Part shown: piece after piece, positions 8,993 to 56,517 of the stretch | Numbering within the stretch: the stretch's first letter is position 1 | How the letters are laid out: every line of letters starts with the position of its first letter | Assembly: GCF_050920415.1 (NCBI RefSeq) | Contig: NZ_CP169309.1 | Strand: one strand, 5' to 3' | DNA from: Escherichia coli | GTDB taxonomy: Bacteria; Pseudomonadota; Gammaproteobacteria; Enterobacterales; Enterobacteriaceae | Length of the DNA stretch: 64,000 nt | Program-made: the position numbers and the translations under genes | The notes under the pieces: model-generated | What the model was told of the DNA's origin: nothing | Seen by the model: the letters and a program-made list of their open reading frames with translations, nothing else | Databases searched by the model: none

Positions 8993-9015
8993 ATTATGTA
9001 CAATCATATGTACAA
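8993..9015. repeat. Candidate integrase arm-type binding repeat, left arm
   Basis: ATTATGTACAATCATATGTACAA; near-identical copy at 56314-56335; further TGTACA motifs nearby. Confidence 0.45.
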
Positions 9016-9136
9016 AGAAAAATTCATGCCGCTGATTGTACATTTTGGAGGTATCAGAGCATAGCAGAACATGATCAGTAGGTGTATTTGTAGCCAAAGA
9101 ACATTTGTACATGCAGCAATCTTTACTCTATTGACA

Positions 9137-9180
9137 CTGTTTATTCATACAGTAAAAAATAGTGCTGTATACAAATACAG
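9137..9180. promoter_or_regulatory. Two LexA (SOS) boxes overlapping the promoter of the dinI-like gene
   Basis: CTGTTTATTCATACAG (9137-9152) and CTGTATACAAATACAG (9165-9180) fit CTGT-N8-ACAG; TTGACA at 9131-9136. Confidence 0.6.
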
Positions 9181-9195
9181 TATAGAGGGATTTTT

Positions 9196-9444
9196 ATGCG
9201 TATTGAGATCTGCATAGCCAAAGAGAAAATGACTAAAATGCCAAGCGGTGCTGTTGATGCGTTAAAGGAAGAATTAACTCGGCGCATCAGTAAGCGTTAT
9301 GACGATGTAGAAGTAATCGTAAAAGCCACCAGCAATGACGGGCTTTCTGTTACACGCACCGCAGATAAGGATTCTGCAAAAACATTTGTTCAGGAGACTC
9401 TGAAAGATACTTGGGAGTCTGCTGACGAGTGGTTTGTTCACTAA
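9196..9444 (+). CDS. DinI-like SOS-regulated protein (82 aa)
   Basis: MRIEICIAK...[16 protein letters not shown] resembles DinI (MRIEV...ETWESADDWFV); RBS AGAGGGA upstream. Confidence 0.75.
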
Positions 9445-9688
9445 TAGACACGTAAAATCGGTAACGGCTGGAAATAATTCAATACTCGCACTATCGGAAG
9501 TTCACCAGCCAGCCGCAGCACGTTCTTGCATACGACGTGCCTGCGGTTTCAACTCCCGCCAGCTCCACCACTTTTGATAGGACTGCAACCGGACAGCGGC
9601 AATAAAAACAGCCACTTACGGACACTGACCAGACAGTAAGCGGACTTAAAAAAGACAAAAATATACACGCAAAATGCACGTGCATTTC

Positions 9689-9724
9689 AAAAAAGCCTCT
9701 GATTGTGAAGTCAGAGGCTTTTCT
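9689..9724. terminator. Bidirectional intrinsic terminator between the dinI-like gene and tfa
   Basis: GCCTCTGA...TCAGAGGC hairpin flanked by an A-run and a T-run. Confidence 0.6.
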
Positions 9725-9768
9725 ATTTGTAACTAAGAGTAACAATTCAACATAACGCAACCTACCAA

Positions 9769-10341
9769 TTACGTCACGTCAAACGCTCTGATTGAACGCA
9801 AATCATCCAGATTATTCAGTTGTTCCTTCATCTCGCGCTGGCGTTCGTGGATTTTAAAGCCCTCCGCCACCATGGCCACCATCATGGCATCGTTCAGCGC
9901 AATAAGTTTCTCCCTGGTCAGTATGACGTTGTTATTATCCGCATCAGTCCAGAAAAAACCATCCGGAAGCAGCCCGGCCTGCGCTGTTGCAACCACGGGC
10001 GCAAGGCGTGACTGCGAGGTTTTTCCGCCATCAAAACGACGGCCATCAAACGTGAAAATAAACTCAACGTTTTCCTGACTGTCGCGCCATGCCTCAATTT
10101 CCCGCCTTTTGGCATCCTTTGCCGCTGCAATAAGTTCCGGCGTGACGGTGAACGGGGCGATTTCGCCCCATTTCCCGCTTTGCAGCTCCTGCCAGACATG
10201 CTGGCCTGTCGGGGCCATATCATCCTGTATGGCGGTATACAGGACGAACTCCGTTTCACCTTCAAATAACACCTCGCAGTCAACCGCACCATTTTCAAGA
10301 TAATGCGCGTTTCTGATGCCTTTCACCGCTCTGATTTTCAT
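9769..10341 (-). CDS. tfa: Tail fibre assembly protein
   Basis: 190 aa directly downstream of the side tail fibre gene; Tfa-like sequence. Confidence 0.75.
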   Translation of the reverse strand: MKIRAVKGIRNAHYLENGAVDCEVLFEGETEFVLYTAIQDDMAPTGQHVWQELQSGKWGEIAPFTVTPELIAAAKDAKRREIEAWRDSQENVEFIFTFDGRRFDGGKTSQSRLAPVVATAQAGLLPDGFFWTDADNNNVILTREKLIALNDAMMVAMVAEGFKIHERQREMKEQLNNLDDLRSIRAFDVT

Positions 10342-10355
10342 GTCTTATTTCCTTA

Positions 10356-12446
10356 TTACTCAATGCGTACAAAAAGACCGATATAGCCACGCGTTGTATC
10401 GTGACTAATGCGGGTCCCCGAAAGCGCCGTGTAACGACCGGGGAAGTTGTATTCACCAGCACCGCCAATCACAACCTGCGGTGAGGATGCGTATGTCCCT
10501 GTATCGCTAACCCGTGCACTCATAGCCAGAGGGCCAAGACGGGAACCCGGCACAATATCACCGAGCCCCAGAGACGCATCTGCACCAAAACTCTCCCCCT
10601 GATATGCCGCCATAATCGGCACACCAACGGCCGGGTATTTATAATATGAGCCTGAGCCCGCCATCCTGGACAGCAGGTACGCCAGTGAATCTCCGTCGTA
10701 TACAACTACCCGCGATGACATGTTCCAGCTGTTATCGCTGTCGTTGTACCGGTACTGCATATAGTGAATACAGTGTTCACCCTGATAATACTGGTTGTAG
10801 CACATCAGGGTTTTAAATTTGCGGACTGTGTCGGATTCACTGTTGGCGTACGGTGACCACATCACATCAATAATGCCGTTAAATTGCGTGGTACCGGTAA
10901 GCAGTTGCGAGGAGTCTGTAATACTGACCGCATACCGCCCCGGCGTGACTTTCTTCAACCACTCAACGAAATCAGACAGCCCCTCAAACGCCAGAGCGTC
11001 AGTGCTGGTGAATGCCTGTCCAAACCCATACATCCCGGACAGGGCCAGCCTGCCCGGTGTGCGGTCACGGATATCACTCTGGGGTTCCATCGTCGCAGCC
11101 GCGTTCAGCTCAAGCTCCGTGCGCATGGCTTCAGCCGTGTCATGCGCCAGTAATGCGCGGCCCTTCTCTGACAGCAGAGACAGTGAGGCATTCCCGTCTG
11201 TATTGAAGTACAGAAGATTATCTGCCCGTTGCGTCAGTGCGCTGATTGCCGTTAAGACGTCATTAAGCGGTTGTTTGCCTGCCAGCGCGTTTGTGATTGT
11301 CGTCGCAAAGTTCGGGTCATTGCCCAGCGCCGCAGCCAGTTCGTTCAGGGTGTCCAGAACTTCCGGTGACGAATCAACCAGCGCAGCAAGCAGTTTGCGC
11401 ACAAACGCCGCGTTCGCTGCTTCCAGACCGGCGGCATCATCCTGTGGGGTTGGGGTGGTTGGGGTGCCGGTGAAGGCCGGGCTGTCCAGTGGCGCTTTTG
11501 TTTTCGTCTCCTCCATGACGGTTTTGACAGCCTTTGGCGTGGCAGCCAGTTCCTCGCTGTCGTTATCCGTGTCACTACAGAGTTGCACCAGACCTTTTTC
11601 TGTCGTGGAGGCATTTGTTGCATTCAGGTCATCAACTATCTGCTGCGTCTCATCCCTGTACTGTTTCGCTTCCTGCGCATTGTCTGCACCTGCATCCTGG
11701 CTGGCTTTAGCCTGTCGGGCGTATTCGGCGGCACTGTTTTTGTGCCCCAGCGCCGCATTTGCCGACAGTTCTGAACTGGTCGCTGCTGATGATGCGGCAT
11801 TATGATAAAGGCGGGCGCGTTCGGCGGCATCGACTGATTCGTCCCGCGCTGTGCCTGATGACTGTGCGCTGTTTTCTGCCTCACCCGCAAAACGTTCCGC
11901 ATCATCACGGGCCGTTGCGGTTGTCGTCACATCCTGTGCCGTCTGCTGTGCGTTTCCGGCTGCAGCTTCGGCGCTCTGCTGTGTCTGATTTTTTAGCTCT
12001 TCTGCCTCATCCTTACTAACCGCCGCAGATGTTGCTGCATTGATTGCATCATCAGCAGCTGTTTCTGCTCTCTCCCTGTCACTGACCACCTGCTCAGACA
12101 AGCGAACAACGGTATTTACCATTTCCTCAAAACGCTTCATTACCTCAGGGCGTAAATCACCCTCCTTTGGTGCATCCAGAAAAGCATTCAGCGTATCCGG
12201 CTCATCTGTCGGTGCAACATAAATTTCCCCCGCCTTTACAGGAGGATGCCCTGAGCGGGACAAAAATACATCATAAAATCCCGGCTCAGCATTAATAGTA
12301 TACCCGCCATCACTTCCCGTAAGACAGGTTGCCACAATATTAACCACAACTGTCGGACTGGTTCTTCTGGCTCGCAATTCAATCGCACAGTTTACGACAG
12401 GCTCACCTGCTCCGTCCTTCAGGACACCTGAAATCTTTACTGCCAT
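10356..12446 (-). CDS. stf: Side tail fibre protein
   Basis: N-terminus MAVKISGVLKDGAGEPV like lambda Stf, Ala/Ser-rich repeats, conserved ATPKAVK...KAPLDSPA collar motif. Confidence 0.85.
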   Translation of the reverse strand: MAVKISGVLKDGAGEPVVNCAIELRARRTSPTVVVNIVATCLTGSDGGYTINAEPGFYDVFLSRSGHPPVKAGEIYVAPTDEPDTLNAFLDAPKEGDLRPEVMKRFEEMVNTVVRLSEQVVSDRERAETAADDAINAATSAAVSKDEAEELKNQTQQSAEAAAGNAQQTAQDVTTTATARDDAERFAGEAENSAQSSGTARDESVDAAERARLYHNAASSAATSSELSANAALGHKNSAAEYARQAKASQDAGADNAQEAKQYRDETQQIVDDLNATNASTTEKGLVQLCSDTDNDSEELAATPKAVKTVMEETKTKAPLDSPAFTGTPTTPTPQDDAAGLEAANAAFVRKLLAALVDSSPEVLDTLNELAAALGNDPNFATTITNALAGKQPLNDVLTAISALTQRADNLLYFNTDGNASLSLLSEKGRALLAHDTAEAMRTELELNAAATMEPQSDIRDRTPGRLALSGMYGFGQAFTSTDALAFEGLSDFVEWLKKVTPGRYAVSITDSSQLLTGTTQFNGIIDVMWSPYANSESDTVRKFKTLMCYNQYYQGEHCIHYMQYRYNDSDNSWNMSSRVVVYDGDSLAYLLSRMAGSGSYYKYPAVGVPIMAAYQGESFGADASLGLGDIVPGSRLGPLAMSARVSDTGTYASSPQVVIGGAGEYNFPGRYTALSGTRISHDTTRGYIGLFVRIE

Positions 12447-12511
12447 ATTCACCCCACAAAAAAGCCCGCCTGAACCCGGCGGGCTGTCATAACACTGTGT
12501 TACCTGGCTAA

Positions 12512-13111
12512 TCAGAACTTATAACCGACACCCACGATGAAACCGTCAGTGCGCCAGTCGCCACTGCCGGAGCCTTCATAAGCAATATCAATAGCCACGG
12601 ATTCGGTCGGGTTAAACTGCACGCCAGCTCCCCACGCCAGAGACGTGTTGCTGTGGCGACCGTCATCACTTCCGGTCAGCACATCGTGCGTTTTCCCCTT
12701 ATTGTCAGTTACGCGGAGATAATCCCCGGAGAAAGTCGACACACGGCTGTAAGCCACACCCGCCATCGCATACGCGCTGAACCATTCATTCACGCGCACA
12801 GACGGCCCCGCCATTACGCTGAACCAGCGGTTACGAACGGAATCTTCATGCCAGCGGGTATCGCTGTAACGGGTCAGCTGGCGATTCTTGTCTCCTGCAT
12901 AGCTGAATGACGTCACCATACCCAGTGTGTCCGTAAACTCATAACGGTATTTCACGTTAATCCCGTTCAGATCATCGCTGCCGGGAACGTTCGTCGAGAC
13001 ATGAAGATACCCCGCGCTCAGCGTGGACTGATGTTCAGACGCCCATGCAGGCGCACCGGATAAGGCCAGACAAATGGCTGCGGACAAAATGGCGGCATAA
13101 AGTTTACGCAT
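12512..13111 (-). CDS. lom: Lom-like outer-membrane protein (Ail/Lom/OmpX family)
   Basis: Signal peptide and beta-barrel sequence ending ...GFIVGVGYKF; position after J as in lambda. Confidence 0.85.
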   Translation of the reverse strand: MRKLYAAILSAAICLALSGAPAWASEHQSTLSAGYLHVSTNVPGSDDLNGINVKYRYEFTDTLGMVTSFSYAGDKNRQLTRYSDTRWHEDSVRNRWFSVMAGPSVRVNEWFSAYAMAGVAYSRVSTFSGDYLRVTDNKGKTHDVLTGSDDGRHSNTSLAWGAGVQFNPTESVAIDIAYEGSGSGDWRTDGFIVGVGYKF

Positions 13112-13177
13112 AATTACCTCTCGCTTTTCTGCAATAAAAAAGGCGTCATTTCTGACGCCCGTTATGGGTTATAAAAT

Positions 13178-16100
13178 TCAGCTGATACTGATACCTGCTG
13201 TGGATTTCTTCATCACCACAACCAGCAGATCGCTGATACTGGTTGTTGGTGTCCAGTTATTCGCTCCTGATGAAGATACGGTGAATGTCAGTGTCAGCGT
13301 CCCCTGTCCGGCAGGCATATCTATAACTGAGGAAAATACGCCCTGAGCATCCGTCGTGGACTGATTAAAAATCTCCTGACCATTGCGGGTCACTCTTAAC
13401 CGGCAGGTTGAATACCAGTATGACTGTTGGTTATTACTGTTGAAATTCTCATGCTTACCACCACGGAACAACACTGGCGGTATCATGACCTGCCGGTCAA
13501 ATTTCTGATCATCACTGATTCTTACCGTGATGGTGCCACTGGCATAACTGTTCGTGCGGGGGAAAGACTTGCTGACCGTTTTGACAATATCGCCTTCAAT
13601 CTGGTTGGCTGACAGTTTCCCCTTAATCTGACAGTTCTCATTTATCGTGACGTTGTTGAGCGTCCCGGAGTTCGCATTCACGTTACCGCTGATATCGGCA
13701 TTTTTAGCGGTCAGCTTTCCGTCCGGTGTCAGGGAAAATGCAGGAGGATTACCGCCGCTGGTAATGGTGGGAGCCGTCAGATATTTCAGGAACACTTCAT
13801 TCATGAATATCTGATCACCCTGACCAACAAACATCGGTTTTGTGTTGCCATTTGCAGGATTAATCATCGCAATCCTGTCTGCCGCCAGCAGCACCTGACT
13901 CTGCATGCCGTCGGGGGTGTTCTCAATACCGGCACCGATACCCGCAATATAAAGGCGACCATCCTGCATCTGCTGCAGTTTCACGGCCCACATACTGTTC
14001 AGGTTATTACTGGTGTCCGTCTGAACCTTTTGTATCTGCTGGATGGTGGCCTCCTGATCTCCCAGCTTCTGGTCCGTTGTCGTCATGATTTCACTGCTTT
14101 TTTGATCCACATACTGGCGAACCTGCGCTATCTGGCGTGCATTCTCCTCATTACTCTGACTGACCGTCTGCGTGAGTTCGCTGCTGACGTTATCCACTCT
14201 CTGGCTCACCTGTGATATACCCAGTGACAGCTCATCATTTTTTTTCGCAACCAGCTGTGTGAGGCTGTTTTCTGTCTCCCCGATTTTTTGGGTCACTTCA
14301 GCAATATCACTCTCTATCTGCTGATTGATCTCATCCTCCAGTTGCTCAACTTCACTGCGCAATGCCGAGGCATTAATACGATCGTTCAGCTCCTGCCCCA
14401 GCAGGGTGCTGTTTATTTTCCCTTCAAAAAAATTGAGATACACCTCAGCATCATTAACCGGCTGGCCAACAGCTTCCACAAACGCTGATTTACCGACGAT
14501 GTTCACACTGCGGATATAAAAGTAATAATCATGGCCCGGCCTGATATTAATACTGGCAGCTGTCCAGTACATCGCCGTACCAAGATAGCGGGCTGTGGTT
14601 TCAACCTGCCGGATATCCGTAATCTGATTTTCCGAGAACCAGAACTCAAACTGCACCGTCGGGTCATACACCGCAAGACGCGGGACTGCCGTTATCTGAA
14701 AATACCCCGGTATCAGTTCAATCTGTGACGGCGCTGCCGGGGCGTTAATCCGGAATGAGGTGGTGGCGGGTTCCCCCTGCTGGCCATAACTGTTTATCGC
14801 CCGCACCGTCAGGGTGTATTCCCCCAGTGGCAGACCACTGAAACGGTGCGCCGTGTCTGCAGTGATGGCGTTGGTCACCAGACGGCTGTCTTCACCGCTT
14901 CCACGGTTCAGGCGCAGACTGAAGCGCACACCCTTCACCACCCGCGGCGTGTCCCATTTCGCCTGCGCCAGATACTGGCCATCATCCGCGCTCACCTCCA
15001 CCGTGAGGTGCTGCACTGCCGGAGGAGTGACGCTGTTCAGGGAGCCGGACAGCGGCTCAAAGGTGGCCCCGTTATCCACAATGGCTTCTTTTTCCGGTAC
15101 GTGCTGCACCGCCGTGATGGCAAAGGTGCCGTCCGTGTTTTCCCGGATGGCCACACAGCGGAACAGGCGACGTCGAAGGCCGGGAATTTTCAGCCCCCAT
15201 ACCCCGTATGTCGCCACGCCATCAGGCAGGGCGCTGACCTGTATCCGGTCAGGAGCAGGCTGTGCCGTGATGTCCACACTCACCGGCTTACCGCTGCCAT
15301 TAATCAGGTTCACCGTGGCGGTACCGGTCTCCGGAAGCGTCACCTCCCGGTCCAGCGTCAGGGTGAGACTGGCGGCATCGATGTTCAGAATGCGCCCGCC
15401 GGTCAGGGTCCCGGCGTAGTCGTTATCACAGACTTCAATGATGTCACCGGGCGTGTGGCGCAGCCCCTGTGATCCGAGCGTGAAATCCACCGTCTGCGTT
15501 TCCAGCAGTTCGGTCTTTATCACCCACAGTCCGGCACGGTGAGCCTGACCGCGACTGGTACAGCCGAACGCATCCATCTTCAGCAGATTACGTCCGTAGC
15601 GCAGTATGGCTTCCGGGTCTTCCACCAGTTCAGTGGAGGTCTGCCAACCGTTCTGCGGGTCGGTGTAATTCACCTCCACCGCCGTGTGCCGGTCCTTCAG
15701 GGCGCTGAAGCTGTAGCGGAAGCCCACACCGTTATCATCCACCACCACATCGCTGTTGGTGTAGGGCCACACCACATCCGACGGGCGGTCCTGCACGAAC
15801 GTCAGCGTCTGCCCGTTCCATACCGGCATACAGCGCATCGCCGAGCAGAAATCACTGAGCACATCCCACGCCTTACGCTGTTGTGACAGGTACGCATTAA
15901 ACGTCATCCGCGGTTCGGTCCCCCCGAAGCCATCCGGCACCGGCTGGTCGCAGTACTGCGCAATGGCATACAGAGCCCATTTGTCCACGTCTGCGGCCCC
16001 CAGACGTTTCCCCATCCCGTAGCGCGGGTGGGTCAGCATGTCCCACAGGCACCAGGCCGGGTTGTTGCTCCAGGCCGGTTTCATACACCCGTCCCAGATA

Positions 16101-16873
16101 CCGCTGTAAGTACGTTTTTCCGGGTCATAGTTTGACGGCACCTGAATGATGCGACCGCGGATATGGTAGTTCACAGTTATCTGCTGACCGCCAAACTGCT
16201 CCGCATCCACCTGCAGGCCCACAATGGCCGTGTTCGGGTAGCACTGTTCCACATCGATGATTTCGGTGTATGACGACCACAGCGTTCTGTTCTGCAGCTG
16301 GTCCGTGGTGCTGTCAGCCGTCTCCCTGACCATCCGGATGTTAAAGGGGCGCTCAGGCAGATTATTCAGAATCACCGACGTCAGGTACTGCGAGGTGGTC
16401 TTACCGTTAATGGTGACATCCTTTTCCGTCACCCAGCTACCGTTACGCTGCAGCTGAATCAGCAGACGAACAGAAGCCGGATTACGGTCGCCCCTGGAGG
16501 TGGTCTCCACCAGTGACTGTACCCCGAAGGTGACCCGCAGGCGGTCAATGTTCGCGGACGTGATGGTACGCGTCACCGGCTTTGCCTTCGTCACTTCCAC
16601 ACCCAGCGCAGTTTCAGCCCCGGAGGACTCAAAACCTTCCGGCGGGGTCTGCTCCTGCTCCCCGGCGCGCCAGACGGCGGTCACACCGTGTATCACGGGA
16701 TTGCCGTCCGTGTCCGTCAGCGGGGTTTTATTCACCAGGATACTCTGCAGTCCCTTCACCGGGCCTTCTATCGGTCCCTCTCCAATCGCATCAATCACGC
16801 TCATCATCTGCGTGGACTTAAGATTGTCCTTTGCCTCAACTGGCGTGTGCGCCTTGCCGCCACCTTTTCCCAT
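13178..16873 (-). CDS. J: Tail tip / host specificity protein J
   Basis: Start [22 protein letters not shown] parallels lambda J; about 1231 aa; C-terminal region diverges from lambda. Confidence 0.9.
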
Positions 16874-17116
16874 TGCCTCACCCTTTACTGTGATAACTGT
16901 TACGCACAAAAGAACAGGCCCCCCGGGGATGCCTGTATCATAATGACTGAATAAAAATTCTGAGTTTATTCACATTTCCGGAAACTGACGGTTGCAGGAA
17001 TAACTCCACATTTTTACAGTTCTTCAGCCTGATAAAGGCAATTGGTCAAAACTTAACTAATCAAGGTGACTATTCATTTCTCCCGTAATATTCGTGAGTA
17101 TTACGGGAGATTTTTT

Positions 17117-17761
17117 TTATCCTCTGCCGATAACCACCACTTTCCCGTCACCACCTTCATCACGGGTACTGATGTCCTGGGATATCCGTCGGGAACCAAC
17201 CAGCATTTCACCGTATGGCACCGGCACCGGATTACCCTGAGCAATCATATTGTCCAGCGAGGAAAAGTAGGTGTTCTGTCTGCCGTTATCCGTTGTCCGG
17301 TAATCCGGTGTTTTTGCCTTCGGGGCCAGCATCTGTGCCACCCCACCCAGCGCCATTGCAGTCCCCATGGCAAACATAATATTGCTGGCTGCAATACCGA
17401 TACCCGGCATCCAGATAGCTGCCGCAGCCAGCGCAACGCCAAGAACCGCCTGAAACACACCCCCACTTTTGGCTCCTTCAGTCCGGGGTACCAGATGAAT
17501 GACATCCCCCGGGCTCAGTGGCTCATGCAGTCGGGTCGATATCTGGTCCGGCGCAGTATCCTCACCGGCAATACGTACCCGGTACCAGCCTTCGGTCATC
17601 TGACGGCGGAATCCCGGCAGCTGCAGAGACAGCGCCCGGATGGCTTCCGCTGCCGTGTTCACATACAGGCTGAGGCGGCGGCCAAATCGTTGTAAATCCC
17701 CGTGAAGGCAGATGCGGACCAGTGGCGGTGATGCCAGACAGAATGCGTTCGTCGTTGCCAT
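17117..17761 (-). CDS. I: Tail assembly protein I
   Basis: MATTNAFCLASPPLVRICLHGDLQRFGRRLSLYV... lambda I-like. Confidence 0.85.
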   Translation of the reverse strand: MATTNAFCLASPPLVRICLHGDLQRFGRRLSLYVNTAAEAIRALSLQLPGFRRQMTEGWYRVRIAGEDTAPDQISTRLHEPLSPGDVIHLVPRTEGAKSGGVFQAVLGVALAAAAIWMPGIGIAASNIMFAMGTAMALGGVAQMLAPKAKTPDYRTTDNGRQNTYFSSLDNMIAQGNPVPVPYGEMLVGSRRISQDISTRDEGGDGKVVVIGRG

Positions 17762-18402
17762 TTTTCAGAATACCTCTCCCGTTTACTCAGTTGTTCAGGT
17801 ATATGGTGAAGCAGTTCACCGTTACCGCAGTAAATGGCGGCGTGATTGGCCACCGATGCGCCAAAGCAGCACAGCAGGATATCGCCCGGCTGTGCAGAGG
17901 GCAGGGGCACCCGGTAAAAGCCCGTGGCCTCCATATTGTCCAGGTACAGGTTCTGGCCGTTGCGCCACCACTCATCCTCGCGCGCAAAATCCGGCAGCGT
18001 TATCCCTGCCAGATGGTATGCATCCCGGAACAGGGTGTAACAGTCCGTCACACCATGTTCAAAGCGCCGTCCGGTCAGGTGCGGCACACAGCGGAACTTG
18101 TGAATCGCCCCCCGGCAGACCAGCCACCAGGACAGGGCACTTTTCACCTGCAGCCGCCGGTCCGCCTCGCTCAGCCAGGGCAGACCACCGGGATGACTGT
18201 GGACCAGTGCCACAATCTCCCCCTGCATCTCTGCCCGCAGCCAGTCCTCCGGTGCAATACGAAAATATGCCTCAGGCTCTGCGGAGGTATTCACGCAGGG
18301 AAGATACCTGTCTCCCTCCGGCGTTCTCACCACGAAGCCGCACGACTCCGCAGGCGCACACCGCCGGGCATGCGCCAGAATCGCTGATTCAGTCTGTGTC
18401 AT
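17659..18402 (-). CDS. K: Tail assembly protein K (NlpC/P60-like)
   Basis: MTQTESAILAHARRCAPAESCGFVV... lambda K-like; start trimmed inside ORF 17659..18663. Confidence 0.85.
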   Translation of the reverse strand: MTQTESAILAHARRCAPAESCGFVVRTPEGDRYLPCVNTSAEPEAYFRIAPEDWLRAEMQGEIVALVHSHPGGLPWLSEADRRLQVKSALSWWLVCRGAIHKFRCVPHLTGRRFEHGVTDCYTLFRDAYHLAGITLPDFAREDEWWRNGQNLYLDNMEATGFYRVPLPSAQPGDILLCCFGASVANHAAIYCGNGELLHHIPEQLSKRERYSEKWQRRTHSVWHHRHWSASAFTGIYNDLAAASACM

Positions 18403-18412
18403 AAAATGGGAT

Positions 18413-47722: not shown

Positions 47723-48282
47723 GCGTTAGTTTCTCCACAGACACAAAACGCCACGACGCCCGGAGCTGCACACTCGCGGGCGTCACTCTTTTCTGGAGCG
47801 CAAAAGATTTTGTAGACCAGTGCTGCATGCTCCTGGAGCTTCGAAATTGACAGATACAACTCATCATTAATTGCTGTCTGCTCGTGTGGCTCCACTACCC
47901 CATCTTCGATTGCCGAACGAATCTGCTTTGAGTAACTCCCGATCTGTTCGATGACTTCCAGCAGGCGCTGGTTTATATCGGCGTTCTCTACTTCCTCAAT
48001 TTCAGGAAGCGATACAAACACCCCACCAGCAGACTGTGCGACAGCATCCGCAATGTAGTGAGTGCCAGCCGCGCGCTGTAAAATCATTGCCCATCCCAGC
48101 GGGAAAATCTGATCGCCATCTGCACGAAGGCGGTTGAATAAAGCGTTCTCTGTTACATCCAGCCACTCAGCAGCTTCAGCGTAACCCCCCGGCAACGCCG
48201 CGATAGTTTTTCTGACAGCTTTCACGTACCACTCAGGCTGTTTTTCTACTTTCCAGTGATGCTTACCCACGGTTAGCCTCAT
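47719..48282 (-). CDS. Putative CII-like early regulatory protein
   Basis: 187 aa immediately downstream of cro; assignment by position and weak recollection of the family. Confidence 0.35.
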   Translation of the reverse strand: MRLTVGKHHWKVEKQPEWYVKAVRKTIAALPGGYAEAAEWLDVTENALFNRLRADGDQIFPLGWAMILQRAAGTHYIADAVAQSAGGVFVSLPEIEEVENADINQRLLEVIEQIGSYSKQIRSAIEDGVVEPHEQTAINDELYLSISKLQEHAALVYKIFCAPEKSDARECAAPGVVAFCVCGETNA

Positions 48283-48313
48283 CGTTCTGTGGTTAAAAAT
48301 TAAAGGTGTTCTG

Positions 48314-48514
48314 TTAATCTTTCGGATAGATATCCGGTCTTAAGTCAGATTTCGTAATTGCACCTGACGTGCATTGCTCAAGTTTTTTAGCCAGCACAAA
48401 ACTGGCTTTTTTATAACCATTGAAAACCAGCCGTAAGTAGCCTGGTGTTGAGCCAACTTTTCCGGCCAACTCGCCCTGCTGTTCTTTGGTTAAAGAGTCC
48501 CAATACGCTTTCAT
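48314..48514 (-). CDS. cro: Cro-like repressor (66 aa)
   Basis: MKAYWDSLTKEQQGELAGKVGSTPGYLRLVFNGYKKASFVLAKKLEQCTSGAITKSDLRPDIY; divergent from cI. Confidence 0.7.
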   Translation of the reverse strand: MKAYWDSLTKEQQGELAGKVGSTPGYLRLVFNGYKKASFVLAKKLEQCTSGAITKSDLRPDIYPKD

Positions 48515-48604
48515 ACAATATGTACCTCTTATATACATATTACATGATTGAAATGAACCTTCAAGATACTTGTACCCTATCGGTACAAAGGTTTTAATTT
48601 CGTT
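48515..48604. promoter_or_regulatory. Immunity-region operator/promoter interval (OR, pR/pRM)
   Basis: Divergent cI/cro spacer containing the palindrome TTGTACCCTATCGGTACAA (48570-48588). Confidence 0.6.
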
Positions 48605-49279
48605 ATGAAAACAGTCCATGACATCCGGCGGTCTAACGCCAGAAAACTGAGAGATGGTGTTGGCGGGAATTCTTCCTTTGCCACCATGATTGATCGCGAA
48701 CCAACCCAGACCAGCAGGTTTATGGGAGATGGTGCTACTAAAAATATCGGTGACAGCATGGCACGGCACATCGAAAAATGTTTCGACCTGCCTGTCGGAT
48801 GGCTTGATCAAGAACACCAGACAACGAACATCACAAAAAAACCTGATGTTTCAATCACTAATAAACAAATAACGTTAGTCCCTGTCATATCATGGGTACA
48901 GGCCGGAGCATGGAAAGAAGTTGGCTATTCTGAGGTTGATTTGAGCACAACAGAAACATATCCCTGCCCTGTACCCTGTGGCGAAATGACTTATATATTG
49001 AGGGTGATTGGTGATTCAATGATTGATGAGTACCGTCCGGGGGACATGATTTTTGTCGATCCAGAAGTACCAGCCTGCCACGGCGATGACGTTATTGCAT
49101 TGATGCACGATACAGGTGAAACCACCTTCAAAAGGTTGATAGAAGACGGGACACAGCGTTATCTCAAAGCATTAAACCCCAACTGGCCTGAGCCTTACAT
49201 TAAGATAAACGGTAATTGCTCTATCATTGGTACAGTTATTTTCTCAGGAAAACCAAGAAGATACAAAATTAAAGCCTGA
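48605..49279 (+). CDS. cI: CI-type repressor with N-terminal HTH and C-terminal S24 (LexA-like) autopeptidase domain
   Basis: 224 aa; C-terminal ...YILRVIGDSMIDEYRPGDMIFVDPEV...KRLIEDG... typical of S24 peptidases. Confidence 0.8.
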   Translation: MKTVHDIRRSNARKLRDGVGGNSSFATMIDREPTQTSRFMGDGATKNIGDSMARHIEKCFDLPVGWLDQEHQTTNITKKPDVSITNKQITLVPVISWVQAGAWKEVGYSEVDLSTTETYPCPVPCGEMTYILRVIGDSMIDEYRPGDMIFVDPEVPACHGDDVIALMHDTGETTFKRLIEDGTQRYLKALNPNWPEPYIKINGNCSIIGTVIFSGKPRRYKIKA

Positions 49280-49293
49280 TCAATGTCTATGAA

Positions 49294-49314
49294 CCTGCTT
49301 CGGCAGGTTTTTTT
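49294..49314 (+). terminator. Intrinsic terminator after cI
   Basis: CCTGCTTCGGCAGG followed by T7. Confidence 0.7.
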
Positions 49315-49474
49315 ATACTTGACAATGTACCATTAAGATACATAATGTACCTGCATAAGATATCGAACAGGCAGGACGCCCACGAAGTAGCCGTCCGGGG
49401 CATACGAAGACCGGAATGGTTCGTAAATAAAAAAGCGCCCAAGTGGACGCTTCACTTTTGAACTGGATTTATAA

Positions 49475-49717
49475 TCAATTATTTTCTTCATAAATGTTTT
49501 GTAATGTATTTATGAGATTTGGTATTTCTTTTATGGGAAAAGAATATATTGGACTTTCGATAATTTTATCAGATTCAAATGGTGGTTGTTTGCAGGACAG
49601 TTGAACTATAACTGAATTATGATCTTTAACTGGCACACAGTACCAACCACATACATCAAAAACAGGAGTATTTTGATTATCCATTATGTCCTCGACAACT
49701 AAAAACACTGCGTACAA
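49475..49717 (-). CDS. Small hypothetical protein in an AT-rich segment next to cI
   Basis: ORF MDNQNTPVFDVCGWYCVPVKDHNSVIVQLSCKQPPF...; convergent with cI. Confidence 0.35.
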   Translation of the reverse strand: MYAVFLVVEDIMDNQNTPVFDVCGWYCVPVKDHNSVIVQLSCKQPPFESDKIIESPIYSFPIKEIPNLINTLQNIYEENN

Positions 49718-50347
49718 ACCTCAAAAGCAGGGAGTTATTTATAAAATTTCATAAAGAATAATTACTGATAGCGACAATTCATTGTTCTTGAATTTTGAAA
49801 AATAGCAAGACAAAACAATGTAAACTTATTTAAGAAAAGTTCTTATTATGTAAACAAAACAACCAATTCGTTATATAGGAAAAACAAATAGTACGCAAGA
49901 AAATATTCAACAGGGGTATTACATTCAACCATAAGAGTAATCGTCTCTTTGGTAACTAATACCGAACATTTTATTGTAACACGTCGTATGGCACATGCGT
50001 CGTTAGCGGTCTGGGGACGTTAAAGGGGACAATCCACTCCTTGCTCGGGCAAACAAACCAGGTAGCCGGAATGTGCAAGTCAATGATGATGCTGATAAGA
50101 CGCCTAACCAGCGTGGCGATCCGGTTTGACGCCTGGGAAGAGACCAGGGTGCAACGATGAGGGCATTTATGGAGCCGCGACAAAGTGTGGTGCCATAACT
50201 GGCTAAGTGCTCTCAGCGTTGTGGTAATCCGCGAAATGGCGCGGCGGTAAGTATGGCGGGGTTACTCTTTCCCCGTTGAGGACACCGGATTGTCAGGTTG
50301 ACCATACGCCTGAGTGACAACCCCACCACAACAGCCACTGCTTTGGC

Positions 50348-50382
50348 GGTACCAGCTTGTACCCTTGCTTCCGGCTGGTACC
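50348..50382. promoter_or_regulatory. Candidate left operator (OL)
   Basis: GGTACCAGCTTGTACCC...GGTACC shares TTGTACC / GGTAC half-sites with the OR palindrome. Confidence 0.4.
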
Positions 50383-50391
50383 GTCCTTTTT

Positions 50392-50480
50392 ACAAAACAG
50401 AGAAGAGCATCACCGGACGACGGGCTCATAACCCAATCCATCCGGGCGGCTGCCACCGCAGGTGTTCTTCTCTGTTTTGT
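50392..50480 (+). other. Long perfect inverted repeat (15 bp arms, ~59 nt spacer) in the early-left leader
   Basis: ACAAAACAGAGAAGA at 50392-50406 pairs with TCTTCTCTGTTTTGT at 50466-50480; adjacent CACC/GGTG extends the stem. Confidence 0.5.
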
Positions 50481-50528
50481 GGAGAAACCAACCGGCCTTG
50501 CAGGGTCGATATGATGAGGAGCAGCAAA

Positions 50529-50891
50529 ATGGCTAGCGAACGCAGTACTGATGTGCAGGCATTTATCGGGGAGCTGGACGGCGGCGTATTTGAAACCAAA
50601 ATCGGCGCAGTTCTCAGTGAAGTCGCTTCCGGTGTGATGAACACGAAAACCAAAGGTAAGGTCTCACTCAACCTGGAAATCGAACCATTTGATGAGAACC
50701 GTGTGAAAATCAAACACAAACTCTCATATGTTCGCCCGACTAACCGCGGGAAAATTTCCGAAGAAGACACCACCGAAACGCCGATGTATGTCAATCGCGG
50801 TGGTCGCCTGACTATTCTGCAGGAAGACCAGGGACAATTACTGACTCTTGCCGGTGAACCTGACGGAAAACTCCGCGCAGCAGGTCATTAA
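50529..50891 (+). CDS. YfdP-like prophage protein (120 aa)
   Basis: MASERSTDVQAFIGELDGGVFETKIG...; AGGAG RBS; order matches CPS-53 yfdP-yfdQ-yfdR. Confidence 0.55.
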   Translation: MASERSTDVQAFIGELDGGVFETKIGAVLSEVASGVMNTKTKGKVSLNLEIEPFDENRVKIKHKLSYVRPTNRGKISEEDTTETPMYVNRGGRLTILQEDQGQLLTLAGEPDGKLRAAGH

Positions 50892-50956
50892 TATCGTTCT
50901 TAATTAACTGATTATTTATCTCATCACTGAATATCTTTATATAGTGAGGACTTATT

Positions 50957-51781
50957 ATGTCTCAGAACTTAGACGCAACCGCAATTAATCAAATCCATGC
51001 CCTTATTTCTGCTCAGGGTGTTAATGAAATTATCAGTAAGATTGGTGCCGATGCTGTGGCATTGCCTGAGAATTTCCGCATTCATGATCTGGAAAAATTT
51101 AATTTAAATCGCTTCCGTTTCCGTGGTGCGCTTTCCACTGCCAGCATCGATGACTTTACCCGTTATTCTAAAGATCTTGCAGATGAAGGCACCCGCTGCT
51201 TTATCGATGCTGATAATATGCGTGCCGTCAGTGTGCTTAACCTGGGTACTATTGATGAACCAGGTCACGCAGATAACACCGCCACTCTCAAACTGAAAAA
51301 GACAGCACCGTTCTCTGCCCTGTTGTATGTTAACGGCGAGCGTAACTCCCAGAAGTCACTGGCAGAATGGATTGAAGACTGGGCCGACTATCTTGTGGGC
51401 TTTGATGCTAATGGTGACACCATTCAGGCAACAAAAGCGGCTGCGGCGGTCCGTAAAATCACGATTGAAGCAAACCAGACCGCTGATTTTGAAGATAATG
51501 ACTTCAGCGGCAAACGCTCCCTGATGGAGTCTGTCGAAGCGAAGACCAAAGACATTATGCCAGTGGCATTTGAATTTAAATGCGTTCCGTTTGAAGGTCT
51601 GAAAGAACGTCCGTTTAAATTACGCCTCAGCATTATCACTGGCGATCGTCCTGTACTGGTTCTGCGCATTATTCAGCTGGAAGCGGTGCAGGAAGATATG
51701 GCTAACGAATTTCGTGATCTGCTTGTTGAGAAATTCAAGGACAGCAAAGTAGAAACCTTTATTGGTACTTTCACCGCCTGA
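50957..51781 (+). CDS. YfdQ-like (DUF2303) protein (274 aa)
   Basis: [26 protein letters not shown]...; length and order match CPS-53 YfdQ. Confidence 0.6.
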
Positions 51782-51908
51782 TTTCATTACTGCAAATGCC
51801 CCTGCGGGGGCATTTATGGAAACGTAATTTACTCAATAATCGCCGGATGGTGAGGGATTCTTTTTACCAGAATTCAGCGCGGTGCAGCGCATATACGTGG
51901 AGAACAAA

Positions 51909-52445
51909 ATGTCATTTATCAAAACTTTTTCTGGGAAGCATTTTTATTATGACAGGATAAATAAAGACGACATCGATATTAACGATATCGCGGTTTCCCT
52001 TTCAAATATCTGTCGCTTTGCCGGTCATCTTTCGCACTTCTACAGCGTCGCCCAACATGCGGTTCTTTGCAGCCAGCTGGTGCCGCAGGAATTTGCTTTT
52101 GAAGCGTTAATGCATGATGCAACAGAAGCGTATTGCCAGGACATTCCCGCACCACTGAAACGCCTTCTTCCTGACTATAAACGGATGGAAGAAAAAATAG
52201 ACGCCGTAATCCGTGAGAAATACGGGTTACCCCCGGTTATGAGTACACCCGTGAAATATGCCGATCTCATCATGCTGGCAACCGAACGCCGCGATCTCGG
52301 GCTTGATGATGGCTCTTTCTGGCCTGTACTGGAAGGCATCCCGGCAACAGAGATGTTCAACGTGATTCCACTGGCACCGGGCCATGCCTACGGGATGTTT
52401 ATGGAACGTTTTAACGATTTATCGGAGTTACGCAAATGCGCATGA
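51909..52445 (+). CDS. YfdR-like HD-domain phosphohydrolase
   Basis: MSFIKTFSGKHFYYD... with HD motif (HSVAQHAVLCSQL...HDATEAY). Confidence 0.65.
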   Translation: MSFIKTFSGKHFYYDRINKDDIDINDIAVSLSNICRFAGHLSHFYSVAQHAVLCSQLVPQEFAFEALMHDATEAYCQDIPAPLKRLLPDYKRMEEKIDAVIREKYGLPPVMSTPVKYADLIMLATERRDLGLDDGSFWPVLEGIPATEMFNVIPLAPGHAYGMFMERFNDLSELRKCA

Positions 52446-52798
52446 ATGTTTTCGAAATGGAAGGGTTTCTTCGCGGGAAATGTGTACCGCGAGATCTGAA
52501 AGTGAACGAAACAAATGCTGAGTACCTGGTACGTAAATTCGACGCGCTTGAAGCTAAATGTGCGGCACTGGAAAACAAAATAATACCAGTGTCAACTGAA
52601 CTGCCACCAGCAAATGAAAGTGTTCTGTTATTTGATGCTAATGGAGAAGGCTGGCTGATTGGCTGGCGTTCTCTCTGGTACACCTAGGGACAAAAAGAAA
52701 CCGGAGAATGGCAGTGGACATTTCAGGTCGGGGACCTTGAAAACGTCAATATCACTCACTGGGCAGTAGTGCCAAAAGCACCGGAGGCTGGAGCATAA
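52436..52798 (+). pseudogene. DUF551-like gene interrupted by an in-frame amber codon at 52685-52687
   Basis: ORF 52436..52687 ends at TAG; the same frame continues GQKETGEWQWTFQVGDLENVNITHWAVVPKAPEAGA to a TAA overlapping the next ATG. Confidence 0.45.
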
Positions 52799-53577
52799 TG
52801 ACCACATTTACCAATAAAGAACTGATTAAAGAAATCAAAGAACGAATCAGCAGCCTAGAGGTTCGAGACGATATTGAGCGCCGTGCTTATGAAATTGCTC
52901 TGGCATCGCTAGAAGAGGAGCCGGTGGCGTGGCTGCATTCAGAAAATGGCTTAGGTATTCCGGCAATAACGAGGAGTAAAAACATTGCTGACAGTTGGTT
53001 ATCAAAGGGCTGGTATGTTCAGCCGCTATATATAGCCAAGCCAGTGCCGGTAGTGCCAGATGCTCGTCCGTCTTTAAATAATGGCATAGTCGGTTTTGAT
53101 GAAGGCTGGAACGCCTGCCGCGCCGCCATGCTTCATGGTGCCGAACCTGTAAACCAAACTTACAAGTCACCACACACGCAGTTTGAACAAGTTGCTGACC
53201 TCTACGAAATGCAATTTGATGACGGTCGCACTTGTGCCTTTCACACTGATGCGCAAAAGGCTGCGCAATGGCTTCAGGTGTGCGACGGAAACAGGGTTCA
53301 GGAATACGTTAAGCTGGAACGGCTGCAGAACGCGCTGTCTGGCAACTCTCCGGTAAGTCCAGGTGGTTGGATAAGCTGTAGTGAGCGAATGCCGAATGAT
53401 AAACAGTATGTTTGGTGTTGGGGGAAGTCTTACGGCTGGACTGAGTGCGATACCTTCGAAGGGTATTACGATTGGTCGAGAAACAAATGGTGGGCAGTTA
53501 CTGACAATGAGGAAGAACAGGCATCGAAAGTAACCCACTGGATGCCACTACCGGAGCCGCCGCAGGAGGTGAAGTAA
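52798..53577 (+). CDS. DUF551 domain protein
   Basis: C-terminal ...QYVWCWGKSYGWTECDTFEGYYDWSRNKWWAVTDNEEEQASKVTHWMPLPEPP. Confidence 0.55.
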   Translation: MTTFTNKELIKEIKERISSLEVRDDIERRAYEIALASLEEEPVAWLHSENGLGIPAITRSKNIADSWLSKGWYVQPLYIAKPVPVVPDARPSLNNGIVGFDEGWNACRAAMLHGAEPVNQTYKSPHTQFEQVADLYEMQFDDGRTCAFHTDAQKAAQWLQVCDGNRVQEYVKLERLQNALSGNSPVSPGGWISCSERMPNDKQYVWCWGKSYGWTECDTFEGYYDWSRNKWWAVTDNEEEQASKVTHWMPLPEPPQEVK

Positions 53578-53771
53578 TGAACAACTTAATGACAACTAAA
53601 CAAGTCGCCGATTTCTGTGGTGTTTCAGTATCGACAGTTCTTCGCTGGAACAGCGTAAACAGGAGAACTGGTCAGAAATACAGGCCTGACTTTCCAGATC
53701 CTGATATTAAATCCTGCCCAAATAAATGGGCATCACACAAGATTTACAGATTTGCGGGAGTGATTGAGTAA
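53577..53771 (+). CDS. xis: Excisionase / AlpA-family HTH protein
   Basis: MNNLMTTKQVADFCGVSVSTVLRWN...; last gene of the early-left operon, near int. Confidence 0.7.
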   Translation: MNNLMTTKQVADFCGVSVSTVLRWNSVNRRTGQKYRPDFPDPDIKSCPNKWASHKIYRFAGVIE

Positions 53772-54053
53772 TATGTATTAGCTTAGATGTGAGCTGACAC
53801 ATCTATGCTTAGATGCCAAACCTAATCTGAGCGTCCACTCTTTACCAAGAGCGGACGTTACCAATGACCATATGACATGAATCGATAAGATCAAAACATT
53901 ATCGCCAAGAAATGTCATACCATTGATACAAATAAAATTGATTACCCCCTTACTCTTGTTGAAAAGTTAGTCGTAGAGTACCTATCGCAATGTAATCAGC
54001 TTTAATCATCTGAAAATTACTCCTTAAAAATTAGCTTTTATATACTGAACAAA

Positions 54054-54773
54054 TTAAATCTCTGTTTCTTTTCCTGCTCGGCTCAACCAATACTCCATTG
54101 TTTGAGTATGAATCTTTTCAGCGTATATTTTATCAATTAATTTATCTTGTTTTTCTTTAATGACTTCACGCAGTGAATCATATAACATAAAAAAACGTTC
54201 ATCATCTTCCTCATTATTACCGTAATTTATTTGATTGAGCTCTGAAAAAATATGATAGTACCTTTTTTTCTTGGTCCCCGGCAATATTAAAACCAAGCCA
54301 CATTGATCATATTCGAATTCACCTTTATGGGCAGCAAAGTTATGTCTAACATTCATAATAGAATCATGTAAATCTCTATATTTTTCTGGCACATGCTTTC
54401 TCTGCAATGTGAATCGACGCCCTTTCGCCTCTGTAAAACACTTACCGTAAGTAACAACTTTTGATATAAACAAAGACTTTAATATTAGATTCTTTTCTAA
54501 ATCCGGATAAATAAAGTGTTGTTCTTTATTAATGTTATTACAAATATTTTTTATTATATTCTCCCAACCAATAACATTCCGAAGATCTTTATCAAGCAAC
54601 TGTAAGGCCACATATTGTTCTACAAAGCGGCCTTTTAAAGGTATTCGTGGTAATATTACACCTTTCTGCTTATAAATTCTTTCTATCGTATTATCTGGAT
54701 ATTGGATCTTCCTTATTTCTATTCCGTCTTCTTCTGATACCCTTACTAATGGTTCATTTTTTAACTTTGACAT
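54054..54773 (-). CDS. Hypothetical protein (239 aa), strongly AT-rich, between int and xis
   Basis: Clean ORF co-directional with int; no family recognised; contains RHNFAAH (an R-x5-H pattern). Confidence 0.5.
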   Translation of the reverse strand: MSKLKNEPLVRVSEEDGIEIRKIQYPDNTIERIYKQKGVILPRIPLKGRFVEQYVALQLLDKDLRNVIGWENIIKNICNNINKEQHFIYPDLEKNLILKSLFISKVVTYGKCFTEAKGRRFTLQRKHVPEKYRDLHDSIMNVRHNFAAHKGEFEYDQCGLVLILPGTKKKRYYHIFSELNQINYGNNEEDDERFFMLYDSLREVIKEKQDKLIDKIYAEKIHTQTMEYWLSRAGKETEI

Positions 54774-55012
54774 GTTAACCCTCTTAAATAAAAAACTAAC
54801 TTTATCCAGATAGTGTCCGTTAAGAAGTTTTCGTTACAACTAAGTTTCTAGGTAAATCATGAATCGACCTATAGTATCAAAAACATTTGGTGGTAAACAT
54901 CTGCATTTATCAAATGGCAGGAGCGATTTAGGGGCATAGGGATAGTGATGATATCGATACCCGCCCCCTCTTATGTCAACACAATGGCGTAAACTTAACG
55001 CTCACATCTCGC

Positions 55013-56269
55013 TCAAAGTGTGCTAGGAGATTTGGTTATGTTCAGGTGATACAAACCGTCAGTTTGACAATTAACAATCGATTCAACCCTCTTCCACCAT
55101 GCCAGGTAAGCTTTACGCTGTTCTTCTAGATAATCACTCTTATCATAAACTTGCCATACCCCTGGCAGCTTATGACCAAGCATAATTTCTGCGATATGAG
55201 GCGCAGTAAGATCAGAAAAATTTGTTCGAGCTGTACGTCTCAAGTCATGAAGAGACCAATGAGGGAATTGATATCCTAAACACCGCCATGCGTACTGCAT
55301 TAAATTGTAAGGCAGCGACTGCAATGATGTCCGACCAACGGGTTCCCTGCTTCCTTCCTTAGTAAAAAGCATATCGGAACCATTGTTCATAGAGATAGCG
55401 TACTTTATAAGCTCTTCAACCGGTTCAATAATGGGCCGCTTTAGCGGTTCGCCTGTTATCTCCCCAGTCTTATGTCGTTCTGGTGGTACAGTCCATACTT
55501 TATTAATGAAATCAAAATCGTCCACCCGGGCGGTAATTAGCTCTGAACTACGGCAACCAAAATGCAGCAATAGTTTAATGAAGGCCCGGTATTTAGGAAC
55601 CATTCGAGAACCATCGATCGCAGCATAAAGGATTTTAATTTCATCATGTGTCAGAAACCGTTTCTTCTGACCTTTACGGATATCCATATCTTTACCCGTG
55701 ATATCCGACAGCGGGCGAGTTTCAATGAGCTTTCTCTTATACGCCCAGACATGGGCCTGCTTTGCGTTAATTAGCAATCGGTCTGCTATTGCTGGAGTCT
55801 TAGTGCTAAGAGGCTCCAGGACTTCTAACCAATCATGCAATGTAGCTGCATCGTGAGGGATATTCCCGATTTTAGAGAACAGGTGCAGCTCAAACGAGCG
55901 AAGTATCTGTTCAGAACCTTTTTTATTTTTTACACAATATGCTTCATACCAAGCACGGATCACAGACTCTACCGTCATGGCTTCAGTAGCTTTTCGTTTT
56001 TCAGCCTGCTTGACCAATCGTGGATTACGGTTTGACTCGAGTTCACCACGAAGACGGATAACTTCTTCTCTGGCCTCTTTTAATCCAGTTGCCGGGTAAG
56101 TTCCGATATCAAGACGCTCACCTTTCCCTGCCCATTGATAACGATATTGGAACACTACGCGACCTTTCGGTGATACTCTGACAGACAGACCATCACGATC
56201 GGATTTAACCAAAACCTTATCACGTTCCTTTCCAACGACTGAACGCAACCACGCATCAGACAGCGCCAT
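55013..56269 (-). CDS. int: Tyrosine site-specific integrase
   Basis: 418 aa; C-terminal catalytic region with ...HDLRRT... and ...MLGH...; adjacent to the att core. Confidence 0.9.
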   Translation of the reverse strand: MALSDAWLRSVVGKERDKVLVKSDRDGLSVRVSPKGRVVFQYRYQWAGKGERLDIGTYPATGLKEAREEVIRLRGELESNRNPRLVKQAEKRKATEAMTVESVIRAWYEAYCVKNKKGSEQILRSFELHLFSKIGNIPHDAATLHDWLEVLEPLSTKTPAIADRLLINAKQAHVWAYKRKLIETRPLSDITGKDMDIRKGQKKRFLTHDEIKILYAAIDGSRMVPKYRAFIKLLLHFGCRSSELITARVDDFDFINKVWTVPPERHKTGEITGEPLKRPIIEPVEELIKYAISMNNGSDMLFTKEGSREPVGRTSLQSLPYNLMQYAWRCLGYQFPHWSLHDLRRTARTNFSDLTAPHIAEIMLGHKLPGVWQVYDKSDYLEEQRKAYLAWWKRVESIVNCQTDGLYHLNITKSPSTL

Positions 56270-56313
56270 TACTCACCTTGTACAAATCGCAAAACACCTC
56301 TGCTGTTTTGTAC

Positions 56314-56335
56314 ATTATGTACAAGCATATGTACA
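56314..56335. repeat. Candidate integrase arm-type binding repeat, right arm
   Basis: ATTATGTACAAGCATATGTACA, near-identical to 8993-9015; further TGTACA motifs at 56280-56310. Confidence 0.45.
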
Positions 56336-56499
56336 GATTTTTGATGAAAGCAAGCTGATCGATTTAAAGTTACATGAAAGAGTTTTCAATTAAAGAAGCT
56401 ACATAACCAAATGTATTTAAATGAGTTACATAACTCAACCTAAATTAACTGAAAGGATTTTGAAAGAGTAAAAGAGCTTTAATTTGGGCTTAATTATTG

Positions 56500-56513
56500 G
56501 GGTGAGAAATAAT
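56500..56513. repeat. Attachment-site core, yjjG-proximal junction
   Basis: GGGTGAGAAATAAT, identical to 8915-8928. Confidence 0.75.
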
Positions 56514-56517
56514 GGCA

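Follow-up and report, generated by a model that had tools for sequence, protein, structure and literature searches.

What is the role of a near-identical, ATGTACA-rich repeat that lies just inside each end of a prophage? This question was raised by a stretch of 64,000 nucleotides from Escherichia coli (contig NZ_CP169309.1, assembly GCF_050920415.1), hereafter the window, which carries a prophage of ~47.6 kb inserted in the 5' end of prfC. A preliminary description of this DNA considered the repeats to be likely integrase arm-type sites that define the recombination architecture. Our analysis supports this proposal, in that the two 22-bp repeats, together with the TGTACA hexamers near them, are most probably arm-type binding sites of the heterobivalent tyrosine integrase (Int) of the prophage. 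The evidence comprises their presence in the phage attachment site (attP) of free phages, their conservation in divergent relatives, their fixed distances from the crossover, a change of hexamer in Salmonella phage SW-37 and an arm-binding domain (PF13356) in Int. The design so described is that of a standard heterobivalent integrase and involves no new kind of mechanism; the added value lies in conserved spacing rules and in the apparent retargeting of the lineage from prfC to lepA.

Repeats and hexamer clusters at the prophage ends

The 22-mer ATTATGTACAAKCATATGTACA matched the window at two positions, 8993–9014 and 56314–56335, both on the plus strand, and no third match was found when up to three mismatches were allowed (0 expected from 100 shuffles). 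The copies lie 65–86 bp inside the left junction and 165–186 bp inside the right junction, which agrees with the direct orientation and the distances (65–80 and 170–185 bp) reported in the preliminary description, and the additional TGTACA motifs that it placed around each copy were also recovered. TGTACA is not enriched over the window as a whole (10 copies compared with 12.2 expected), but eight of the 10 (at 8997, 9009, 9037 and 9106, and at 56279, 56309, 56318 and 56330) form two clusters of 120 and 62 bp immediately inside the prophage ends, where ~0.035 copies would be expected by chance in the combined 182 bp. The whole-window count of the oriented heptamer ATGTACA was not enriched either, and seven of its eight copies fell within the two clusters (plus strand: 8996, 9008, 56317 and 56329; minus strand: 9037, 9106 and 56309). 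Each flank of the core holds four TGTACA copies, within 221 bp on one flank and 196 bp on the other, and their motif is distinct from the core sequence. TGTACA-type repeats were the only repeat family common to both arms. The cores and the sites of the two arms, termed P (int-proximal) and P' (int-distal), are as follows.

8915–8928: attL core GGGTGAGAAATAAT, 14 bp, identical to attR; it covers prfC codons Ile-Ile-Ser-His-Pro and the crossover lies within it
8929–8975, minus strand: phage-supplied substitute prfC 5' end, with its ATG at 8975–8973, in frame with host prfC
8993–9014, minus strand: P' arm pair, reading TGTACATATGATTGTACATAAT, with two direct TGTACATA units spaced 12 bp apart
9037–9043, minus strand: extra single ATGTACA of the P' arm, found in the E. 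coli group only among the sequences examined
9106–9112, minus strand: second extra single ATGTACA of the P' arm, likewise found in the E. coli group only among the sequences examined
56279–56284: single TGTACA adjoining the int ribosome-binding site (TGTACAAGGTGAG)
56309–56315, minus strand: third hexamer adjoining the P pair (TGTACATAATGTACA), also present in the Salmonella and Pantoea relatives
56314–56335, minus strand: P arm pair, reading TGTACATATGCTTGTACATAAT; its start is 164 bp away from the core, and 44 nt separate its end from the int ATG downstream
56500–56513: attR core GGGTGAGAAATAAT, 14 bp
56514–56564, minus strand: displaced native prfC 5' end, stranded at attR beside yjjG

The prophage is flanked by osmY and prfC (7390–8975, minus strand) on the left and by yjjG, rimI and holD on the right, and joining the host flanks over one core copy restored an empty prfC/yjjG site that was 100% identical to E. 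coli genomes. This site was uninterrupted in 4717 of 5426 complete E. coli genomes, while the attR junction of this phage type was present in 699 of them (~13%). Integration has replaced the first 16 prfC codons and the region upstream with phage DNA, which gives the protein a new N-terminus (MTSLLAAEV...).

Comparison with attP of the excised phage, the check suggested in the preliminary description, showed that the motif is present in the attP of related phages. A total of 33 phage records carried this int and arm at 95–99% DNA identity, including Stx1a- and Stx2c-converting phages and a Cdt-I phage. In the free genomes of 2H10, Ayreon and cdtI the prophage ends are contiguous and form a complete attP in which a 22-mer stands on either side of the core, in the order int, TGTACA sites, 22-mer, ~165 bp, core, substitute prfC start, 22-mer and two TGTACA. 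The ATGTACA corresponding to 9037 is also found in these three phages and is absent from loci of Xenorhabdus (L244) and Budvicia (L273). It is important to note that 2H10, Ayreon and cdtI are ~96% identical, so that the presence of the repeats in attP says little when taken alone, and divergent relatives were therefore examined.

Spacing of the sites in divergent relatives

A search of viral contigs with three aligned integrases as the query yielded nothing but near-identical E. coli prophages (95–100%) and was replaced by a protein search combined with contig look-ups, in which divergent relatives were picked by integrase protein similarity alone and independently of the motif. The integrases of the six relatives, from Salmonella, Pantoea, Xenorhabdus, Serratia, Vibrio and Shewanella, were 84%, 83%, 65%, 60%, 52% and 51% identical to that of the window, respectively, and all six elements were inserted in prfC, adjoining a truncated native prfC 5' end. 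TGTACA was the top-ranked of all 6-mers in the 230 bp upstream of int, with 25 copies in seven sequences (window included) and at least two copies in each. All seven loci retained three or four TGTACA sites ahead of int. The element common to the relatives, read on the int strand, is TGTACA-N6-TGTACATAAT, composed of two direct TGTACATA units 12 bp apart, and the left copy in the window reads exactly as this shared element on the minus strand.

The P pair began 163–164 bp from the core in eight enterobacterial loci (that of the window, Salmonella, two loci of Pantoea, three of Xenorhabdus, and Serratia) and 132 bp in Vibrio and Shewanella. Identity of the intervening spacer to that of the window was 0.65 for Salmonella and Pantoea, 0.58–0.59 for Xenorhabdus and Serratia and 0.49–0.54 for Vibrio and Shewanella, in comparison to 0.55 for a shuffled null; the sequence of the P-arm spacer is near random while its length is kept. 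The single TGTACA at the int ribosome-binding site lay 50–52 bp past the start of the P pair in all prfC-targeting relatives measured, and a hand count placed it at the same distance in one Acinetobacter-type locus (L124). For the P' pair, exactly 64 bp separated its end from the core in E. coli, Xenorhabdus ehlersii (L244) and Budvicia aquatica (L273). The ATG of the substitute prfC follows this pair by 16 nt in E. coli and by 13 nt in Xenorhabdus and Budvicia, whose substitute N-termini differ from that of E. coli in sequence and by one codon. A fixed distance to the core combined with a variable distance to the ATG indicates that the constraint acts on the distance to the crossover and not to the start codon, as a recombination architecture predicts and unlike what is expected of a promoter.

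This bears directly on a second explanation, according to which the 22-mer is primarily a duplicated promoter or operator, with TGTACATAAT supplying the −10 hexamer (CATAAT) of both int and the substitute prfC. Both copies have the same orientation and lie shortly upstream of minus-strand start codons (at 44 nt from that of int and 16 nt from that of the substitute prfC), TAAT following the second hexamer is conserved in many relatives, and overlap of an arm site with an int −10 hexamer is documented in KplE1 (PMC2951348). A lysogen also needs to transcribe prfC from phage DNA, as insertion separates the gene from its native promoter. However, a consensus scan for σ70 promoters on the minus strand of both arms found none for int or for the substitute prfC, and the sole good σ70 match in the arms, from the σ70 and terminator scans, was the plus-strand promoter of a dinI-type gene. 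The 13–16 nt that separate the P' pair from the ATG would leave almost no leader, and this distance varies while the 64 bp to the core do not. In addition, some relatives (L124, L139 and L125) have either a pair that is reversed with respect to int or a distal pair that is not adjacent to any gene start. A role of the 22-mer as promoter or operator in place of arm sites is accordingly quite improbable, although a promoter role is compatible with arm-site function as a second role.

Salmonella phage SW-37, whose integrase is 45% identical to that of the window, provided a further comparison. In its attP (L007; CP051275, 11743–12053), lepA codons 1–14 (MKNIRNFSIIAHID) stand in place of the prfC start and match E. 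coli LepA at 14 of 14 residues. The inferred core falls at Ile-Ile-Ala-His codons, homologous to the Ile-Ile-Ser-His core of prfC. The distal pair reads TGTCCA-N6-TGTCCA and ends 64 bp from this core; on the int side, sites reading TGTCCA, CGTCCA and TGGACA (twice) begin 134 bp from it. As judged from these sequences, the architecture is retained in SW-37 and the hexamer changes together with the integrase. The integrase lineage has apparently been retargeted between paralogous translational GTPase genes (prfC and lepA) at the same G1-motif position; a look-up for SW-37 lysogens found only the phage record, and the lepA target rests on the LepA match.

Pattern scans with TGTACA-N6-TGTACATAAT were carried out on viral contigs and on a collection of one genome per species; their matches are selected by the motif itself, and only the association with int counts as evidence. 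Among the 120 viral-contig matches listed, 54 occurred in a locus encoding an Int homologue, 25 of these with an Int 26–83% identical to that of the window. Among the 120 matches listed for the genome collection, 12 were situated 18–55 bp upstream of an Int homologue (33–98% identical), in Photorhabdus, Acinetobacter, Marinomonas, Serratia, Xenorhabdus and Escherichia. Relatives from Salmonella to Acinetobacter and Moraxella have retained TGTACA-N6-TGTACA pairs ahead of int, and several loci in attP form (L125, L184, L148 and L137) had a pair on each arm. The record of Moraxella Mcat19, which is poorly delimited, lacked the second arm, whereas the related locus L148 had both.

A third explanation attributes the similarity of the two repeats to chance, to recent duplication or to a site for a host factor. 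The TGTACA total of the window, being no higher than expected, would suit such an origin, but it is effectively refuted by the clustering of the hexamers, their persistence in widely divergent relatives, the constant geometry and the altered motif of SW-37. The motif tracks the integrase and not the host, extending from Escherichia to Acinetobacter and Moraxella, while two motifs occur within Salmonella: the prophage with the 84% identical integrase uses TGTACA and SW-37 uses TGTCCA, which argues against a host protein reading the motif. We regard this explanation as barely conceivable.

The integrase and the proteins that may read the putative arm sites

The genes and the additional repeats that bear on the identity of the binding protein are as follows.

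53577–53771, plus strand: excisionase-like gene encoding 64 aa with a helix-turn-helix (HTH), convergent with int; it matches the excisionase family phrog_1553 (E = 4e-36) and, weakly, HTH_17/MerR
55013–56269, minus strand: tyrosine integrase of 418 aa (Arm-DNA-bind_3, Phage_int_M, Phage_integrase)
56365–56434, plus strand: second repeat family, in the P-arm spacer, with TTAAAGAAGCTACATAAC at 56390, TTAAATGAGTTACATAAC at 56417 and a weaker copy near 56365

Int possesses both a separate N-terminal arm-binding domain and a catalytic tyrosine-recombinase domain, with matches to PF13356 (Arm-DNA-bind_3; residues 3–90, E = 2e-16), PF00589 (E = 4e-17) and PF22022. Solved arm-binding domains of the CP4-like/HPI and HAI7 integrases, 3jtz/3rmp (E = 1.4e-6) and 3ju0, respectively, could be aligned with the Int N-terminus over residues 1–80 and 1–96, albeit at low identity. 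The protein is ~96–99% identical to the integrases of phages cdtI and 2H10, the DNA of int and the P arm is 95.7% identical to that of cdtI, and attP is the same as that of cdtI. SXT/R391 integrative and conjugative elements (ICEs) and phage cdtI have integrases of the SXT cluster within the IntSXT subgroup, which insert at prfC (PMC8138268, PMC4344509), and this subgroup is defined by a DUF4102 arm-binding domain (PMC8138268). The PF13356 (DUF4102) N-terminus, the insertion at prfC and the near-identity to the cdtI integrase place Int in this prfC-targeting SXT/cdtI cluster of the P4-like/IntSXT subgroup, the link to IntSXT resting on PMC8138268.

That Int is the protein bound at the arm sites, and which sites are used in each reaction, we infer from the observed sites, their clustering, positions, conservation and co-variation with the integrase, and from the domains of Int. 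On excision the prophage ends would join as one attP of ~420 bp, which on the int strand would run from the distal single sites through the P' pair (TGTACA-N6-TGTACATAAT), the 64 bp containing the substitute prfC start, the 14-bp core, the AT-rich spacer of 164 bp, the P pair with its adjoining hexamer and the single site at the int ribosome-binding site to int itself. The N-terminal domain of Int (residues ~3–90) would hold TGTACATA units of both arms, leaving binding and cleavage of the core to the C-terminal domains, and bending of the spacers may let the arm-bound protomers reach the core to form an intasome for integration into prfC. Excision would employ the intasome together with the excisionase, which probably acts in the 164-bp spacer at the separate repeats of 56365–56434; these repeats are candidate sites of an excisionase or a bending protein. 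In such a scheme the arm-type sites would define the minimal attP and the control of direction between integration and excision.

The arm sites may also be regulatory. Transcription of int proceeds away from attP, which places three or four sites 15–66 nt upstream of the int ATG, and their occupancy by Int would be expected to repress int; the consensus scan detected no int promoter in this interval. By analogy with KplE1, P4 and ICEMlSymR7A, the int-proximal sites are the ones whose occupancy would exert such repression. More speculatively, binding of Int at the left pair, 16 nt upstream of the substitute prfC ATG, might affect RF3 expression in lysogens.

The scheme has parallels in known systems. 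As in the lambda integrase (sites P1, P2 and P'1–P'3), a short motif that bears no relation to the core is repeated on either side of it in attP, adjacent units are about one helical turn apart and a separate N-terminal domain is available for arm binding. The present system differs from lambda in the PF13356 (DUF4102) fold of that domain, in its motif (TGTACATA) and in its target, which is the 5' end of a protein-coding gene for which the phage supplies a substitute start. The 3' end of lambda int faces attP, whereas here the 5' end of int does. Closer parallels are KplE1 (CPS-53; IntS/TorI) and P4 (Int/Vis), with P4-like integrases, int transcribed away from att, which would place arm sites in the int promoter and leader here as well, and a separate excisionase gene that is not co-transcribed with int. 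Both differ in having tRNA targets and other arm motifs, and their negative autoregulation has been demonstrated, the KplE1 arm site overlapping the intS promoter (PMC2951348), while for the present integrase it is a prediction. ICEMlSymR7A resembles our locus in integrase subgroup, attP scale, number of arm sites and the position of intS directly beside att: its attP spans 283 bp with five P/arm-type sites (consensus TGKTGGTATC), all of which are required, and attP-bound IntS is proposed to shut off intS (PMC11963761). Its motif and target (phe-tRNA) differ, and its sites were tested experimentally, in comparison to the sequence-based assignment made here. In SXT, int and xis are convergent as in the window, but transcription of int depends on the upstream Ps003 promoter, which SetCD controls, and not on an att arm (PMC4344509).

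The convergent excisionase-like gene supports a further explanation, namely that the repeats bind the recombination directionality factor (the 64-aa product of 53577–53771) and that the Int arm sites lie elsewhere. A gene of the excisionase family is indeed present, small HTH_17-like genes occur near int in relatives, and such excisionases bind repeated sites in att arms, as illustrated by the TorI sites that overlap the KplE1 intS promoter (PMC2951348). However, the pairs occur on both arms at fixed distances from the core, whereas characterised directionality-factor sites usually occupy one arm, between the arm sites and the core. There is also no other family common to both arms that could serve Int, and a separate repeat is found in the P-arm spacer, where directionality-factor sites are expected. 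Moreover, the motif is kept across integrases of 26–84% identity in phages and islands whose genes are otherwise different. Binding by the excisionase in place of Int is for these reasons unlikely.

Several observations nevertheless weigh against the assignment of the sites to Int. Every motif-carrying element examined also encodes a small HTH excisionase-like protein, so that association alone cannot separate Int from the excisionase as the binder, and the pattern scans share the limit that their matches were selected by the motif. TGTACA is palindromic, a less typical feature of arm sites to which monomeric domains bind, although the conserved flank (TGTACATA) orients the units despite this symmetry. 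With respect to a bending partner, neither the strict IHF consensus (WATCAANNNNTTR) nor a relaxed form matched in either arm. The literature searched held no binding or recombination data for this integrase, and no paper linking TGTACA to arm-type sites or to this attP was found in a search whose coverage of older work is incomplete.

Wider distribution of the arrangement and neighbouring genes

Taken together, these observations permit a broader and more tentative reading, in which TGTACA-N6-TGTACA and the fixed spacings (64 bp; 132 or 163 bp; a single site at +50–52 bp) might constitute an arm code shared by a large P4/SXT-type clade, perhaps including the SXT/R391 elements, which are of clinical importance. 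Its members would have been retargeted repeatedly to the 5' ends of genes (prfC, lepA, a HAD hydrolase and an aspartokinase), and their arm sites would double as operators over int and RF3. We consider this combined reading possible but doubtful; if true, Int occupancy would control both int and the phage-substituted RF3 gene in lysogens. The site map of motif, spacing and orientation may be used to predict attP and prophage ends in relatives and to design minimal prfC-targeting integration vectors, and the lineage offers a system for asking how arm geometry persists while core specificity shifts from prfC to lepA.

Relatives with integrases 37–45% identical to that of the window likewise use the 5' ends of protein-coding genes as targets and supply substitute starts. 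Such loci were found in viral contigs (L125, L184 and L196) and among the Acinetobacter-type elements (L124, L139, L180, L190, L199, L205, L221 and L223). On the basis of short peptides, one target is presumably a HAD-hydrolase-like gene (M..IIFDMDG) and another, downstream of alaS, presumably an aspartokinase-like gene (MALIVQK...).

In Vibrio diabolicus (L332; GCA_024748515.1, 3001–7209), an island inserted in prfC encodes an integrase of 52% identity and shares the TGTACA sites. Genes for a second tyrosine recombinase, an HTH_17 protein and a type I restriction enzyme are also present on it, contents which suggest that the same integration module serves non-phage islands, possibly defence islands.

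The prophage family of the window includes Stx1a-, Stx2c- and Cdt-converting phages, and two further genes were noted. The first phage gene inside attL (9196–9444, plus strand) encodes a DinI-family protein (PF06183, E = 1.5e-19). A promoter-like TTGACA lies at 9131 and is overlapped or followed by LexA-box-like CTG-N10-CAG sequences at 9137–9152 and 9165–9180, which suggests that this dinI-type gene is an SOS-induced, phage-borne modulator of RecA; phage Ayreon has other DNA in its place. Between int and xis, an open reading frame of 239 aa (54054–54773, minus strand) had no Pfam match and matched phrog_8440, a PHROG of unknown function, over its full length (E = 1e-142). This frame may represent a cargo or moron gene within the recombination module.

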